A stretch of DNA of 64,000 bases from Vicugna vicugna (Eukaryota): the NCBI GenBank assembly GCA_013265495.1, contig MU058065.1, positions 1,710,364-1,774,363 on the forward strand, written 5' to 3'. Below are positions 6,590 through 42,579 of the stretch, piece after piece. Both the position numbers and the translations under genes were made by a program. The notes under the pieces were generated by a model that was given only the letters and a program-made list of their open reading frames with translations, was not told the origin of the DNA and made no database searches. The first letter of the stretch is position 1; every line of letters starts with the position of its first letter.

Positions 6590-7020
6590 TGCCTACAAAG
6601 ACCTGCAGGTCTGTGACCTCATCTTCTACCTCTCCCCCAACCCAACCCTGCTCACCATGCTTAGGCTACTCTGATCTATTTTCTCAACCTTGAGCTCACA
6701 AGCTCATTTCCAACTCAACTCCCTGGTACCAGCTGTATTTTCTTCCTTGGACAATCCTCCTGGATCTGCCCATAGCAGATGTTTTCAGGTCCTGTGTCAA
6801 TTCATCCGTTAGAGAGTTCTTAACCACCTTATATAAAGTAATTCTACCCCACAAAGCAGTCACTTTCTGTCATGTTATCATTTTACTCTATTTTCTTTTC
6901 TAGTATTTCTTTTCAGTTACTACAGTGTAAGTTTCATAGACCTTCTTATTCAGCACTTTATTTCCAGCACCCAGAATTGTGCATGTCACATAGTAGGTTC
7001 AGAGTAAATATTTTTTGAAA
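6590..7020 (+). mobile_element. L2 3' fragment
   Basis: Ends cagcacccagaattgtgcatgtcacatagtaggttcagagtaaatatt, resembling the L2 3' tail. Confidence 0.6.
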
Positions 7021-7073: not shown

Positions 7074-7211
7074 AGACAGCTCCAACAATCCGAGTGTCAA
7101 AATTCAATGATGAAAAGGGTCTTTGATACCTACATGCTCTTTTTTCAAGTCAACCAATCAGCCACAGCACTGAAACACGTGTTTGCCTCCTTGAGGCTGT
7201 TTGTATGCAAG
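7074..7211 (+). CDS. DOCK10: DOCK10 coding exon (RQLQQSECQ...LRLFVCK)
   Basis: tttccag| acceptor and AAG|gtaagg donor; 138 nt, phase 0-0; lies within track ORF 7059..7247. Confidence 0.96.
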
Positions 7212-14188: not shown

Positions 14189-14302
14189 AAATTATCGGAT
14201 CTCTACTACGACATTCATCGGTCGTACCTAAAGGTCGCAGAGGTGGTGAATTCGGAAAAGCGGCTTTTTGGCCGCTTCTATCGTGTGGCATTTTATGGAC
14301 AG
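14189..14302 (+). CDS. DOCK10: DOCK10 coding exon (KLSDLYYDIHRSYLKVAEVVNSEKRLFGRFYRVAFYGQ)
   Basis: ggtttcag| acceptor and CAG|gtaagt donor; 114 nt; RVAFYG DHR2 motif. Confidence 0.96.
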
Positions 14303-16062
14303 GTAAGTTTCTTACGAGCAGCATGGCCTCTAAGTTCTGTTGAGCATTTGATTGCTGTCTTTCATTCTCTACAAGACACATCTAACTACTTGTGCCAAAG
14401 GATTAAGGGAGTTGGGTGAGGGCAGGTGTGTACCTGGGTATATTTGAGTGTTTCTCCGGGTGTAAGGGTCTATATGTTTGGCCAGAGGAATGTACTAAAT
14501 TGGAAAAAAAAAAAGAGCGGAGAACTCCATAGGTCTTAATACAGATTGAGTTAAAACAATGATTTCAAACTTCTTGGAGAAAGAAAGCACTATTTTTCAT
14601 CACCTTCCTTCTCCCACTTCATCTCAGAATATTTTATTATAGCTTTGCCTCATACTGGAAAGTAAAATTTAATTGAAAATTTTTTAAGAAGCAAAATCTA
14701 TAACATGCCAGGAAACAAAGAATTCCTAGGGGCTCCAGCATGTCAAAGCCATGAACCTTTGACTTTAAAATCATGCATTTTCTTTTCTCTAACTTTCAAC
14801 CCATCACTGTGTCTCAGCAGAGCGTGATACAGTTTTGTTGCCCACACCGCAGGTCAATATAATTTTTAAGTTATCTTCCTCAACTTACTGCACAAACAAC
14901 GAACAAGACTGAAAATAATAGCTCGCCATCACATTGGCCTGAAAGTAAAGTGAACTTCAATTGCGTATTAATTATGAGTGTCTCCGAGCAGTGCTTTAAG
15001 GGGAATAAACCCAGGCATCGTCCTGTTTCTTTCCAGGAAGGCTTGTAACACTAGTATATTTCAGCAGCCATATTTCAGACTATGATTTTATGGAGAAACA
15101 TTCCATTCCTTTATTTGCACAATTGGAATGACTCTCAGCCTTCTCAGTTCCTTTTTTTCCTCCGTTCTTGTAAAAGCACGGTTTCGCAAAGCTTCTTGTT
15201 CTCTTCAGAATCTTTTAAGGCTGCAAGAGAAGGTGTCAAATCCGTTCTAGATCATTCTACATCATTTCCCATTGATGTCTTTTGGAAAATGTATATTGTC
15301 CTCTAATCACCAAAGGCAGCTTAAAAACTAACTTCTGAATTAATAAAAATAGCTGCTCTCTACCTGGAAAGGAAAGTGCCACTAGGCAGCCACTTACGAT
15401 AAATGAATTAGTCCAATGCAGATTTCCTCCACTGCGCAGGAGCGTCAGGACCATGGAAACAGAGAAAGCTAGTGGTGTGAGGGATAGAGATGTGGGGGAT
15501 GGTCTGTAGAAAGAAGCTAAATTTAGACATTTGGGGTTCTCTGGAGAAGAGTCTGAACTGTCTAGGTGACAGTGTATATCGGGGAGAGAGGAATGCGGGG
15601 CTCTACAGGAGAAGGAAAAGGAGATGATACCTTGCAAGTCCGTGATAAACAGAAGATAAGCAATTCTTGACCTTCCTGAAACATTAGCAAGAAAAAATGG
15701 CAGAAAACCTTTTAAGGAAGGGAAGGTGGGAGTTGAGGGATCGTAAGGGAAGAACAAGGGTTTCTGGGGACTGACCACAAGCTAGCTGAGGAGTACAGAG
15801 GTGGCACAGAAGATGTGTGTTCAGCAAACCTAGATTTGAGTCTACGACCCTGCAGGCGATCTTTGCAATGAAAAAGTAATAAACTACCGTTAGTCGTCCG
15901 GTCACGGAAAACAGACTGCCTACCTGAGGGTTTCTCCAACCCACATCTAAGATGCTGCTTACTAAACAGATGGAAAAGAAACAAACCAAAATCATGCTTC
16001 TTTCCGACTAGATGTTAATGCAGATGTTTGCTCTTTTCTTCTTTTGGTCTCGATTGTTGCAG

Positions 16063-16068
16063 GCTGTG
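16063..16068 (+). CDS. DOCK10: Candidate 6-nt alternative microexon GCTGTG (Ala-Val)
   Basis: Long AG-free pyrimidine tract ending ttgcag|GCTGTG|gtaagt; phase 0-0; TGCATG at 16095 and 16375. Confidence 0.8.
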
Positions 16069-17145
16069 GTAAGTTCCCCCCCTCTCTCTCCACGTGCATG
16101 CTCTAATAAGCCTCACACTCCCCTCCGTTTGGTTTTACTGAACCTTAACTGTTTTGTGCAAATGAACATTTGGTACAAAGGTGAGATAATCCTGCTTCCA
16201 TTCATTTTGGAGTCATCCTGCACTTCTGGAACTAAATTATGTTTATTCCAGTTATCAGAATTACAAAAATGTATCCTTTATTTTTCACATAGAGTATCTT
16301 TCTGCACAAAGGTAGGTGTAGTCAGAAAACCTACACACACACACACACGCATACACACAGATATGTATGGAAACTGCATGTTTGAATACATTGGTAGTAG
16401 ACTCAGTATTGGAGTTTGCCTGCTCATTTCAGGCCACCAGAGTTGCAGCTGATTAAGAAGAGCACGGTGGGCAGAATCTCAGAAGTTGCAGCGGTGGCCA
16501 TTGGTGGGGATCTTCCCAGGGTCCCGAAAGGACCCAACCCTTTTCCAAAGGAGCATTATGAGAAACAGGGCTCTCTTTGGTGGTGAGCTCTCAGCATTCT
16601 CAGAGGTGATGGCACTAATTCCCAACACAAATGATGAGCAGTGAACTAGACCTTTACCGGGAAAGTCAGGTTAAGTCTCCTGAGATGCAGAGAGAAGCAA
16701 CGTAAGAAATCTGGAGGACAAGCCGAGGGGAGGTGACACCCCAGTACCTAAAGTTCTGCAACACAGAATTTTCTTTGTGTTATTTTGACCCATATGAAAC
16801 AGCCCATATTCAACCATTTTTTACTTACAAAGATGGCAAATTCATGTGTTTCAACATAATTATTGCTAAGTAAGCTGGAAAGACAAATTCTTTTGGTACC
16901 CACACACTGTCCACGGTCAGCTCTCTTCTCTGACGAGAACATACTTTTTTGTAATTCTTTAAATCCCTTTCCCAACCCATGCCATATCGGTATTTTTCTA
17001 CCTTCATTTGTGAATTTGGTGTCACGAGTCTTTAACTCACCTACTAAAAGAATCCCTGAAAACCCCTGTACTAAACAGACTAGGGGGCTACGGGGAAGGA
17101 CTGGGAAAGCCACTTTCAAATGACCTAACTTTGTTCTTTTTGCAG

Positions 17146-17153
17146 ACTCCTCA
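17146..17153 (+). other. DOCK10: Candidate 8-nt frameshifting microexon ACTCCTCA
   Basis: cctaac branch motif, tttgttctttttgcag acceptor, 8 nt, then gtaagt donor. Confidence 0.55.
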
Positions 17154-20100
17154 GTAAGTGTGCTGATCGCGCACCTGGCTTTTTGTTTTTAATTCTGCTA
17201 GTATTCTAGTTGTCTTTTATTTCAAAGTCCAACCTGAGCTTAAAAGGCAAGATGTTTTGTTAAATCTGCAGACCCGAGTACATGCCTAAGCATGGACTCT
17301 GCCAACTCCACCCCCAGCTGCCTTTGAACAAGGAAAGCTAATGGAGGTCTCTCTGATAACCAGGGATTTAGAGCCTCAGTCGCCATCGTTCAGTGATATT
17401 CAAATACCTGTCCCACGACACCAAATGGAGAGTGTGATCGATTGGAGTCAGCAGGAGCAGACAGGGCACATCACTTCGTACTTGATGATAAAGAAATACC
17501 GGACAGACTTGAACATTCCCCCGAACGTGTACAGAATGAATGTTCTAAAGATCTAAGATAAAATCTTGAATTTCATTAGCATAATCCCCATGGTCAGAAA
17601 TCATTTCTTTTTCATGATGGTACCGTATGTCCCTGTAAAATTCACCTTTTAGTATCCAATTTGATGTCTTGCAGTCATGTTACAAAGATTACAGCAATAT
17701 AATAGACAATTGGCTTTTTACTTCCGCAAAGGCCTTTGGGTAAATATTTTCACATCCCCTGCAGAATAATGCTTTCATTTTACAATATTGGCTAGAGTAG
17801 TTAATATTATGTCTGCAATGAGCCAGACACTAGAAAACAAGTTAGAAACTGTTCTTTTGTGGCAAGAACTTTAAAAATGCAAGTCTTGCATAGCATGAAT
17901 TTTCTAATGCAACACCTGGCATCATTGACTACGGAAATTTTCCACAGAGCAGCCTATATGGAACATCCCCAAAGTGTCCCTGAAGTATTCATTTCCAGAG
18001 TAATGAAACGCCAGAAGTGATCAAACATCAACTGTAATCAATGAAATCCTGAGGCTCTGGTATTTAGCATGAAAGCAAGCAAGCGAATGCTCATTGCATA
18101 ACTTAAAACATCAGATGGCCCTGGAATGAAATGAGGGAAAGGCCTGGGGGAATTTTACTCTATTCATCAAAGGACGCAGATTCCATGATTCTCAATCATG
18201 CCTACGTGGGTGTAGATGCATCGCAGAATTTTGATAGAAGAGGGATTGGGGCGGGGGGAGGGTGCATGTGTACTGTCTGCAACCATCGTCTCCACATTAG
18301 GATGTGATACATCCTTCTGACTCCCCTCCTATATAAAGGTCACTGATATGTGTATATGTATAATATTTATCAGATTGGCTTCATATTTATATGGAGCCAT
18401 TTCTCTGCATCCTTGAAGGTTTCCTTCGTGTTTAACATTTAGCTTATTAGGATTTTATGACCCATCTTTTATATGGTAGATTCCTCTTTGAACCCATTCC
18501 TCTGTGAACTTTGAATCAGTGGAATGTAACGGTGGGGATGTGTATATTTGACACCCCAATAATGATCCAGGGATATTGCAAGATTCTGAAGTACCTGCAG
18601 AAACGTCTAAGAAGGAGTTAGTGATTTTAGTTGTCAGTTTATTGAAGTACATTTTAAAACAGAGTGTTGCCTTGAAGTTTCATACATCAGGTGTGTTAAC
18701 TCTACCGACGCAAAGTCCTTGTTTAACTAGGCTGCATGCTGGTTCCTGACCACGGCAGATCAGGGTGTTTCACCTTGTAAAATGACATTTTGAAAAATCA
18801 AACTAGCTAGGGAAATGCAGAGGTCACATTTCTGTTGCCTTGAAATGTAGTCTCCTCATCATCTTGGGGCTAAGACCAAAGAGAAGCTGCCCCTGGGTTT
18901 TCATTACCTGGTGTCCCTAAGCATAAGTCACCTAGTTCATGGCCTGAGCATTAAACTTCCTTAAGATAGTGCCCTGTGCCTCGCTGGGCTTCGCTTTGAT
19001 AGTTTCTCTGGGTGAAAGGTAAGCTCGCATTCCAGTCATTGTCAGACATGCCATTTCTCTGGCTCCAAAAGCTCTTACACAATTGCTGGCAGGTAGCAGA
19101 TTAGATACTACATCCTGCTGCTCCAGCACCCTTCTGTAAGGCCGTCTCAGTAAGTTTATAGCTCCATGTTCTGAAATCAATTAACTAATTCTCAATTCAG
19201 AAATTTGTTAGGGGAAAACATTCACAGCGACTGATAACTTAATTAATTAATTAATTAATTCTAGTCTTTCTGAACAATCACTTACCAAAATATCAGTAGA
19301 ACTGTTACAATAAGGAAAAGTGTAGTTTACAAGCAAGAGAAAGCCTGGAGGTTTGTATTTTTAAGCACCCAAAACTCCGTTAAGCTGTTTCCCTGCATAT
19401 TAGCCAAAACTCAAATTGCTTCACTGACGCAGAGTTTTTTTCTGTATTATTGTCATCATCATCCTCCTCATCACAGATAACAACACTCACCAGTGGCCTG
19501 TGGTGTCCCTGTCCTTAGGGGCCCCTGAGTCTGAATGTGTACTGTGTCCCGTCCTCCAGACCAAGGAGTGAGGATGAAAGAAAGTCACAGGTCATGACCA
19601 AGACCACAAAGGTCATGGTGATGACGATAAAATACTGCTTTTACCACTCCTTTTTGCTAACTCTCGATTCGGAAATTTGTTAGGGGAAAAAAATTCACAA
19701 CGATAATGTCTCTTTGTGCTGGTTTTCACACCACGGTGAGAAAATCTTTTCCTGGAACTTAGAGCCATTTTTCTCATTGAAATGGAAGTTGTGGGTGTGG
19801 CTTCAGTTATTGCCCTGCGGGGATTCTGGTTGCTGGCCTCAGAAGTCTTATTTCTCTGATGTGTCAGTCTGTCAATTTTAGCCACTAACTTCTGACCTTG
19901 AATTAGACAAAACTCCACGAAGACAGCAACAGAGAAAAACCTAGCAGGCCGGAAGTCATGTGGGAATGGGGCCAGACCTCACTACCCCTACAGAGTCTCG
20001 AGGGATGACAAGGAGAGGGTTTTCATGCTGTCAACACCAGACTGTCACTGTTTTAGCAATTTGGGGTCAAGCTACTCAGAATCAGCTGTGTGGGTCTTGA

Positions 20101-21632: not shown

Positions 21633-21779
21633 GGTTTTTTTGAAGAAGAAGAAGGCAAAGAGTATATTTATAAAGAGCCCAAGCTGACAGGTCTCTCTGA
21701 GATTTCCCAAAGACTGCTCAAACTCTACGCCGATAAATTTGGAGCAGACAATGTGAAGATAATCCAAGACTCCAATAAG
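21633..21779 (+). CDS. DOCK10: DOCK10 coding exon ([28 protein letters not shown]...IIQDSNK)
   Basis: cttccatag| acceptor and AAG|gtaggg donor; 147 nt; EYIYKEP DHR2 motif. Confidence 0.97.
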
Positions 21780-29657: not shown

Positions 29658-31996
29658 GTAGGTTGATATGAAAAAAAAAAGCTTACTAAAATCAAAAAGC
29701 TAAAGTGAACAACTTAGCTTTTAAATGGAAAATCTATACTCTATCAACTTCTCAAATACATCTGAGCTCATCTGTACCCAAAACAAAGATTCATTATACC
29801 TCAAAGTGCTAAAACAATAGTACAAAGACGAGAGAAAAAAAATTTCTTTTCCAGAAAACCTTTGCTAAGAGAGGCAGAATTTGACTCTGTGCTTCCTGGA
29901 AACATACGCAAAGAAAAGAAACTAATGGATTGCACAGGTCTTGTTATTCAGTAAAAGAAATAGATCTGTTGGCAGGAAAGATAAACTTTCTCCTTGTCCT
30001 GAGCTTCAGTGGGGATTTGTCACCTAGGGCTTTATATGTGGAACAGTGACTACAACACTCATGATTTCTTCAACGACTTTTTCCTTAAAAATGATTTACT
30101 AGTATATGGTCTTTCTACATTTCCACCTTAGATTAAACTGAGGACAAAATATTAACTTCTAACTCTGTGGAAGAGCTCCTAGAGGAAGAACTATTTGATT
30201 GATATCAGTCATTAGGTTTAAATTAACCACAGCAAAACTGTAAGTCATCTACAGCAAAATAAGCCATTTTCACGGCAACCACTGATAAGTGTTTTGAGTT
30301 GGTGGTAATGAACAATTTTCTGAAATCAGAAACAGCTAGCAAAGGATAGGGGTCCTTAAAGTCCAGTGTATTTTTTAAAACTGGGTATTTAATCTCAGTT
30401 TGGATTTATAACATTAAAAAATGTGTTTGTTTCTTTTCTCAGTTTTTTTTAATAAAAAGGCGTTTGACTGTAATGTTTGAGTTTGGACTCTAGTGGAGGG
30501 AAGGGCAGTCAAATTTGAGCATAATCTTGTAATGCATGAATGAACCATAATCTGTAACGCATGAATACCTTCTCATGGCTATGTATCCATACACATATTT
30601 TGGAGACAGGTACATACACAATTACAGTGAAGAGAGAAATCCTACCATTAAACTTTGTAAAAATGGAAACAGCTTGAATGGATAGACAGACATAAATAGA
30701 AAGATAGAAATAGAATTAAATATGCCATTCACTCCAAGAGTGTCCAGAAAAGTCTTAGCTAAAAGGTTAAGACAGAAGCCACTACTTAGTGAAAGAACCT
30801 TTAATATGAGGTGAGAGATGGAGCAGGATGAAGTGGATGCTGGTGTGTAAAATGGAGATGTGGAGCTGGGGTAGCTTGAGTTGCTCAAGTGACAGGCAGG
30901 CAGTAATTACGTTTATGGGCAGCAGAATGTCATGCTGTTTTATAAACGGCCAAAAACCATAAAAGCCTCTTTTGATGGAGGCCAAAGTAATACGTATAAC
31001 TACCTGGATGAAACATAAATAGGAAATGCTGATTCGGAGTCTGTTTCAACATTTAGAAGGGGGACAGCATAGTCGCATAGTCAACGGTGGTAACGGATAT
31101 CAAATATAATATCAAATATTATATCAAAATATATATATCAAAACACAGCAACAAGAACACATCCGCTCTGTTACGGTGCCAAGCGGGCGAGATCCAAAGG
31201 CATGTTGGTTTTAGAATTTCAGATGCTTTTTGGATGCATTATTTGCCAAATTATTCAAGCAGAACTTGTGACATTGATCACAAGGAGAATGTATTGGTGG
31301 TGTAGAATTCATGGATGCTGGCTGTTTGGTGGGGGGGCAGAGTGGCAATTCTGGCTTGGAAGAGGAGTTGAGCTAACGCTTGGTAATGTGTGAAGTTAGT
31401 GGGGAAATCATCATAACAGGAAGTTTAAAATATTCATTAGGTCTCATCTGCACAGAGATTTTAGAGGTGCCTGGGGGCTTTTGCTGTTGTGATTGTGTTC
31501 ACATAGCATGATTGGAATGGATCTGATGGGAGAGTATCATTTAGGCATATTAAGATTATTTTCAAAAGTAAAACCAGGCCAAGGTATATTTTTCTTGTAT
31601 TTCCATTAATGCAAACACTCAAAGGAGATTTCACATCTTTCCCTTTTCTGGCAGATTTTGACAGTACAAATTACAAACTTTGTGGATAAAATAAAATTTC
31701 AGAATTACTCAAACACATTCGTAAGATTCATTCAGGCAGTTAAAAATACGTATCCGATAGTTGAAGAGTATTGGAAAGCTACTTCAAATCTTGTCAACAT
31801 GGCTGTGATGCAGCTGGGGAAAAAAAATCTTTAGATATGCCTTGATAAGTGCATTTTCAAAATTTGCAGATTTCCCTGTGGGGAATTTTTTTTTAAGAAA
31901 TCACTGTTTTGGGGGTTTAATTTTGTGTTTTGAGATACTAACACAAACCTCTCTGTTATCATTTTGTTTTGTCGTGTTGTTTTGTCCCGTCTCAAG

Positions 31997-32113
31997 ATTA
32001 CGTGCTGGGACGACCCTTCAAAGCGCGGAGTGGAGCGAACCTGCACGCGAGTCATTAGCAAGGCCACGCCCACTCCGTCCGCAGCCTCGGTCTCACCCAG
32101 CGCAGAAGTTTGA
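31997..32113 (+). CDS. DOCK10: DOCK10 last coding exon (ITCWDDPSKRGVERTCTRVISKATPTPSAASVSPSAEV*)
   Basis: gtcccgtctcaag| acceptor; TGA 32111-32113; ...TCTRVISKATP...SAEV C-terminus recognised as DOCK10. Confidence 0.95.
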   Translation: MTCWDDPSKRGVERTCTRVISKATPTPSAASVSPSAEV

Positions 32114-42194: not shown

Positions 42195-42579
42195 TATACA
42201 GGGAACAGCATGATAATTTTGACTAGACACAAGAACTTATGCAAATCACAGTAAGTGGGAAATAGAAGAAAGACATGAATAGAAAAATGAACTGCTCAAA
42301 CCCGGCTTATATTCTACAGACCGGAGTAAATAGATTGACACCCTGTAGCTCTGCACATGCGCGATCTGTTCAGAGTAATGGCCGAACTTCCTGCCAGAAG
42401 GCTTTCCACTGTACTCCAGTGTAACTCAGCGAGCCTCATGGAATCTACTGTCAACACAAGGCTGATGTTTAAGCTGTGTTCTTCTTGTGGTGCTTTAGGA
42501 GATTTTGAAGTCTATGGGGAAAGAGAGAGGATGGAAAAGAAGAACAGGAGAAAGATAGGGCCAAGGATAGAAATAGGGG

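Follow-up and report, generated by a model that had tools for sequence, protein, structure and literature searches.

A six-nucleotide DOCK10 microexon encoding Ala-Val, conserved from frogs to primates, is likely spliced in Vicugna vicugna

Introduction

Two described microexon programmes and two individual exons are the closest known systems to the locus reported here. The targets of SRRM4 are described as carrying a UGC in the first few nucleotides upstream of the acceptor, between it and the pyrimidine tract (PMC13174390 and PMC4387716). For RBFOX, which acts in neurons, heart and muscle, the hexamer TGCATG is reported to be enriched downstream of alternative micro-exons (PMC4317164). At the level of single exons, a 6-nt exon of DOCK9 (human HsaEX0020668; zebrafish dock9b DreEX0028046) is neural, with a delta PSI of 56 in zebrafish and 61 in human, and eMIC-dependent (-33 and +66), as given in supplement rows of PMC12626424. 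The MicroExonator catalogue of mouse lists a 6-nt exon, GCTGTG, at chr1_-_80522184_80522190, labelled 'Annotated', supported by 566 reads and assigned a vertebrate conservation score of 3.64 (supplement row of PMC7821500). Here we describe an exon of the same six bases in DNA of Vicugna vicugna, and compare it with these systems. The whole stretch that was analysed, referred to as the window, comprises 64,000 nt of contig MU058065.1 (assembly GCA_013265495.1, positions 1,710,364 to 1,774,363, forward strand), and all coordinates below are those of the window unless a contig is named.

Results

The host gene and its flanking exons

An exon map made by tblastn showed that the window carries the 3' portion of mammalian DOCK10 on the + strand. 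The upstream of the two exons considered here (14189..14302, +) encodes the end of DHR2 lobe A and the first strand of lobe B and closes with a phase-0 donor; it was matched by human DOCK10 DHR2 chains over its full length, with one substitution. The 147-nt downstream exon (21633..21779, +), which encodes the lobe B connector helix, the second strand and the next helix, was identical to human DOCK10 chains at 49 of 49 residues, with lower scores for DOCK9. DOCK9 and DOCK11 sit elsewhere in the Vicugna vicugna genome (84% and 83%, respectively). By homology, the gene is DOCK10, a GEF of the DOCK-D type. The intron between positions 14302 and 21633 spans 7,330 nt, and since both flanking exons are phase 0, inclusion of a 6-nt exon adds Ala-Val without a frameshift. 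In human DOCK10 chains nothing separates the two exon pieces, which meet at residues 192 and 193 of 6TKY, and the solved DOCK10 DHR2 structures that we found therefore represent the skipped form.

Splice signals of the microexon

The microexon, GCTGTG, lies at 16063..16068 (+) and consists of one Ala and one Val codon; the mouse catalogue has the same six nucleotides, and AV occurs in database DOCK10 proteins. A first-pass annotation made from the letters of the window had listed the elements of a neural microexon around these bases, and every one of them was found in place: an AG-free pyrimidine tract (16024..16060, +) in which TGC occurs at 16029 and 16058, the CAG of the 3' splice site (16060..16062, +), a consensus GTAAGT 5' splice site (16069..16074, +) and two copies of TGCATG (16095..16100 and 16375..16380, both +). 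Pyrimidines make up 73% of the 37 nt that precede the acceptor, and the donor is followed by a pyrimidine run that also follows the paralogous microexon of DOCK9. A motif scan predicts a branch-point-like TTAAT at 16015..16019 (+), 48 nt upstream of the microexon. The same annotation had described the exon as an in-frame Ala-Val cassette within DHR2, which the phase-0 flanks, the orthologous proteins that contain AV and the mouse catalogue row bear out.

The regulatory motifs require a more guarded reading. With 28 TGCATG on the + strand of the window, the copy at +27, a predicted RBFOX binding site, is modestly unusual (p ~0.04 for a match within 100 nt), and the copy at +307 does not exceed chance (p ~0.14 within 350 nt), for which reason it was dropped as evidence for RBFOX. 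Upstream of the microexon, TGC occurs at -5, -34, -44 and -68, and the interval from -33 to -6 is free of it. The TGC at -5 overlaps the TGCAG acceptor, and one of the seven constitutive DOCK10 acceptors checked likewise has a TGC at -5; the acceptor's own TGCAG holds the only UGC at this microexon that is placed as in SRRM4 targets. In the 6-nt DOCK9 exon of this genome, the nearest upstream TGC is at -48.

We also searched the window with a microexon filter consisting of an AG-free 30-mer of at least 70% pyrimidine, a YAG, an exon of 3-27 nt and GTAAGT. Within the 7,330-nt intron two sites pass where 0.01 would be expected, a count that none of 200 local dinucleotide shuffles reached; the whole window has three, compared with 0.23 expected (0 of 60 shuffles). 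Since these criteria were chosen after the site at 16063 had been seen, and shuffling destroys natural pyrimidine runs, this significance is overstated and carries little weight. The case for a real microexon rests on the ortholog records rather than on motif statistics. A search of metagenome contigs with an 18-nt motif returned 20 loci, none with pyrimidine-tract context or intron similarity beyond the motif itself; with the similarity so confined, they were taken as chance matches and rejected as conserved intron flanks.

Ala-Val in orthologous proteins and transcripts

Exactly AV stands at the junction in 12 of the 120 database proteins that were listed against the downstream exon; another 83 lack any insert, 5 contain a different one, and the remaining 20 do not reach across the junction. 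The twelve come from chimpanzee, opossum, four rodents, the star-nosed mole, Xenopus laevis and one other frog, the last with four models. A further 60 cluster members comprise 6 with AV (orangutan, rat and four star-nosed mole isoforms), 40 without, 13 that do not span the junction and one DOCK9 with a 14-residue insert. The AV insert is known in 11 species other than Vicugna vicugna, and for the star-nosed mole RefSeq holds isoforms both with and without it. By its catalogue coordinates, the mouse exon lies 1,525 nt into an intron of 8,080 nt, a placement similar to the one here (1,760 nt into 7,330 nt). The mouse transcript is one that we take to be Dock10, and the identical bases and the intron geometry agree with this.

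Included and skipped forms both exist as ortholog transcripts, as the mouse reads, the mole isoforms and the skipped solved structures demonstrate. Going by the proteins in which it occurs, the AV cassette has been kept from frogs to primates, and is thus deeply conserved among vertebrates. The exon is already known: the AV form is present in models of RefSeq and UniRef as well as in the mouse catalogue. Its supposed invisibility to ORF-based annotation therefore applies to models of the Camelus ferus kind, which lack AV, but not to these three sources. Given identical bases and an insert present in ortholog records, the six bases are likely spliced in here too, adding two residues to the protein.

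The insert was carried by none of the 21 junction-spanning Logan-derived members (tissues unstated), was not found among the bird or fish proteins listed, and did not occur on its own in any of 86 additional, mostly fish, proteins. Models from birds and fishes also contain short inserts (VS, VR, VSQL and VSCL, among others); these resemble donor read-through and were excluded from the microexon count. A 33-residue insert in a Camelus ferus DOCK10 model, which itself lacks AV, maps to intronic positions 19519-19617 (+) at 97% and was taken as a prediction artefact. The same model ends with a 21-residue piece from 42499-42561 (+), which replaces the last exon near 31994-32110 and is possibly an alternative or a mispredicted last exon.

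Paralogous exons and the age of the microexon

At the same junction, DOCK9 of this genome has a 6-nt exon, GCAGCG, which encodes Ala-Ala and is followed by a GTAAGT donor (C1833:7120420-7120425), and, 452 nt beyond it, a 36-nt exon (C1833:7120878-7120913). Rat DOCK9 X35 has a 14-residue insert that these two exons together account for, in keeping with the small optional DOCK9 inserts that the first-pass annotation had placed at the homologous junction. We infer that the documented neural 6-nt exon of DOCK9 is the one found here. If the coordinate offset that we take to apply between the assemblies involved is right, a 6-nt and a 36-nt DOCK9 exon lie about 450 nt apart in the tables of PMC8627023 and PMC7935315.

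The ten bases past the DOCK9 and DOCK10 donors agree at seven, an agreement that 5 of 435 control pairs reach. The intron of about 540 nt at this junction of DOCK11 in this genome contains no such exon. In the teleost Denticeps, AA is present in four of six RefSeq isoforms of a DOCK10 protein that is nearer to DOCK10 than to DOCK9 (76% vs 59%). The 6-nt exon shared with DOCK9, together with AA in a teleost DOCK10, makes it likely that the exon is older than the DOCK9/DOCK10 duplication; the simplest reading is that an ancestral Ala-Ala microexon likely predated the split and came to encode Ala-Val in tetrapod DOCK10. Three DOCK10 models of Salarias fasciatus (P0315, P0320, P0401) have a 10-residue insert at the junction. 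It is similar to the first part of the product of the DOCK9 36-nt exon, and is either a homology-projection artefact or a remnant of the second exon in a fish dock10.

Position of the two residues in the DHR2 domain

In a structural model without the insert, a strand (106-112), a helix (114-120) and a second strand (124-128) follow one another, with the junction at the helix start. The corresponding elements of a 189-residue chimpanzee AV fragment model are placed at 23-31, 32-36 and 44-49, with a pLDDT of 73 for the block, and the fragment superimposes on structures of DOCK10 lobe B (with 8I5W, the rmsd is 1.8). Ala-Val is predicted to enter the short helix linking strands 1 and 2 of lobe B at its first turn, and would lengthen the connector from 10 to 12 residues. 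The length of this connector is tightly kept: among 124 distant representatives it could be read in 76, of which 53 have 9 residues, 21 have 10 and 2 have 11, so that all 76 fall between 9 and 11; in the other 48 it was unreadable. The 12-residue connector of the AV form is a real departure from this constrained length. The available text of the review PMC10152721 and of the DOCK11 structure paper PMC13663769 gives no role for the connector.

A preprint (10.1101/2022.06.15.496229) describes Arg1876 as a RAC3 contact of DOCK10 that is missing from DOCK9. By sequence, this residue is the Arg that opens the first strand, nine residues ahead of the junction; of five further residues used to check the numbering, four fall exactly where expected and the fifth is displaced by one position. 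Leu1903, the residue mutated in 8I5V, comes after the second strand. From the topology of the hairpin rather than from distances, both residues are predicted to lie at the end opposite the insert, and the insert itself likely occupies the length-conserved connector of lobe B, away from the GTPase pocket. With Arg1876 at the other end of the hairpin, a switch of specificity is less likely than an effect on the surface or on dynamics.

Other microexon-like sites

Downstream in the same intron is a candidate 8-nt microexon-like site (17146..17153, +) with an AG-free tract, a branch-point-like CCTAAC, a TGCAG acceptor and a GTAAGT donor. Its inclusion would shift the frame, and translation would then meet a stop 53 nt past the start of the 147-nt exon that follows; judged from its splice motifs alone, it would be a poison exon if included. 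A further filter-passing site of 23 nt, at 6904-6926 (+), has a GTAAGT donor and a TGCATG at 6980, some 150 nt upstream of the exon near 7074; a shorter exon would also be possible at this site, using an inner CAG.

Tissue programme and competing explanations

The tissue information for this exon comes from mouse. The supplement of PMC7821500 assigns the exon to the Neuro-Muscular cluster NM4 (the main text names NM1-3 only) and gives it a PC1 loading of 0.026, below the cut-off of 0.03 used in that paper. The exon is flagged FALSE for differential inclusion in all five tissue groups of the same source, namely midbrain/hindbrain/neural tube, forebrain, skeletal muscle, heart and adrenal gland, although low coverage may be the reason for these flags. 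The first-pass proposal that inclusion is neuron-specific goes further than the one tissue dataset found, in which the cluster is neuro-muscular and none of the five groups is significantly differential.

On balance, we lean towards an optional DOCK10 mini-exon, retained from frogs to primates, that is likely used here mostly in neurons and striated muscle and that places Ala-Val on a surface connector of the GEF, with a small predicted effect on activity. A perfect donor combined with RBFOX binding at +27 would promote inclusion where RBFOX1/2/3 are high, possibly with the assistance of SRRM3/4. The insert would most likely adjust a surface or domain contact or the dynamics of lobe B, rather than act as a Cdc42/Rac1 specificity switch. 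As to its origin, the exon probably derives from an Ala-Ala microexon of the common ancestor of DOCK9 and DOCK10, and is absent from DOCK11 in this genome. RBFOX-aided neuro-muscular inclusion is suggested by the +27 motif and the mouse cluster, and appears to be the best regulatory reading. Of the RBFOX perturbation data to which the first-pass annotation had pointed, the Rbfox/Nova/Ptbp/Mbnl target table of PMC5989265 (12 of 15 files) has four Dock10 rows, none of which is the 6-nt exon. The exon was likewise not found in four of the five supplement files of PMC4317164, in the main text and one supplement file of PMC12868881, or in the main text of PMC12626420.

One could also imagine, along the lines of the first-pass annotation with its neuron-specific tuning of the GEF domain, a strictly neuronal, switch-like microexon controlled by SRRM3/4 (eMIC), which would retune the exchange activity of DOCK10 or its Cdc42/Rac1 preference. 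Such a reading, which we regard as possible though unlikely, would account for the strong donor, the long AG-free tract, the UGC within the first several nucleotides upstream and the tightly kept connector length, but not for a mouse cluster that is neuro-muscular instead of neuronal and brain groups that are not differential, and it sits poorly with an insert predicted away from Arg1876. The 6-nt DOCK9 exon is neural and eMIC-dependent with no TGC closer than -48, and a poor motif is therefore compatible with SRRM control. SRRM3/SRRM4 control had been put forward in the first-pass annotation; the target lists searched do not include any DOCK10 exon, and the UGC is not discriminating, being shared by one of the seven constitutive acceptors checked. 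Specifically, no row for a DOCK10 exon was present in 12 of the 19 supplement files of PMC7935315, including its list of 314 SRRM4 exons, and no dock10 row in the 12 supplement files searched of PMC12626424, including the zebrafish neural list. Both absences are weak, since the 6-nt DOCK9 exon is likewise missing from the list of 314 exons, such lists depend on read coverage, and zebrafish dock10 possibly lacks the exon.

A bolder proposal, which we consider rather doubtful, is that a single microexon that predates the duplication was rewired, becoming SRRM-driven and neural in DOCK9 and RBFOX-driven and neuro-muscular in DOCK10, with the two residues lengthening a connector that eukaryotes otherwise hold at 9-11 residues and acting as a tissue switch on dual Cdc42/Rac activity or on partner contacts. 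If this were true, the solved DOCK10 structures found, all of the skipped form, would have missed the switch.

We consider it improbable that the exon, though real, survives from an ancestral DOCK-D microexon as a relic that is rarely included or only loosely regulated, follows no tissue programme and leaves the protein without measurable change. Such a relic would fit the five non-differential tissue groups in mouse, the lack of AV in all 21 Logan-derived members, the absence of the exon from DOCK11 here, and the observation that deletions of single microexons in zebrafish are mostly free of phenotype in most tests (PMC12626424). The same two residues are nonetheless present from frogs to primates, with a conservation score of 3.64, and a two-residue insert occurs in a teleost; retention over so long a time makes a neutral exon unlikely. 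That the site is a chance splice-like motif, unused in Vicugna vicugna, is very improbable, for although two other sites of the window pass the motif filter without known support and the Camelus ferus model takes a false insert from the same intron (97%) without having AV, the six bases are those of a read-supported mouse exon, the insert occurs in 11 other species and the splice signals are intact.

Discussion

Taken together, the observation made in the first-pass annotation was confirmed, and its interpretation is partly supported. Open-access literature searches returned no paper on the function of the DOCK10 Ala-Val exon. The change in DOCK10 splicing described for neurons of a Parkinson's model (PMC12424998) involves an insert of negative charge and a cryptic exon that contains a stop; it could not be linked to the site at 16063 and was set aside. 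As a find, the exon matters little, as it is already annotated and hundreds of such microexons have been catalogued. However, should the Ala-Val form be the main product in neurons or muscle, the solved DOCK10 DHR2 chains that we found would represent the alternative isoform. DOCK10 is reportedly required for the formation of dendritic spines (PMC4472020).

Judged by its sequence, the exon is the ortholog of the annotated mouse microexon and a paralog of the DOCK9 microexon, and belongs to a conserved, frame-keeping type of cassette. With the mouse Dock10 microexon and the AV isoforms of RefSeq and UniRef it shares the bases, the junction, the residues and the intron placement, and we found no difference, other than that here the exon is known from sequence alone. 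It resembles the neural microexons of the SRRM3/SRRM4 (eMIC) class in its length (3-27 nt), in being in frame and conserved, in its strong donor and AG-free tract, and in its host, a regulator of GTPases, but differs in that its proximal UGC is only the TGCAG of the acceptor. The likeness to the RBFOX-enhanced micro-exons of brain, heart and muscle (as described in PMC4317164) lies in the TGCATG 27 nt downstream and in the mouse neuro-muscular cluster; CLIP or knockdown support for RBFOX at the 6-nt exon was not found in the tables searched (PMC4317164, PMC5989265).

A further comparison is with the 6-nt exon of DOCK9. The two exons are alike in junction, length, phase, first codon, donor, seven of the ten bases past the donor and the connector into which they insert. 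They differ in the second residue, which is Ala in DOCK9 and Val in DOCK10, and in the additional 36-nt exon that DOCK9 has 452 nt further on. The nearest TGCATG lies at +175 from the DOCK9 exon and at +27 from that of DOCK10, and the DOCK9 exon is documented as neural and eMIC-dependent, whereas the DOCK10 exon is not so documented in the tables searched. The pair offers a clean test of how the regulation of one ancestral microexon diverged after duplication.
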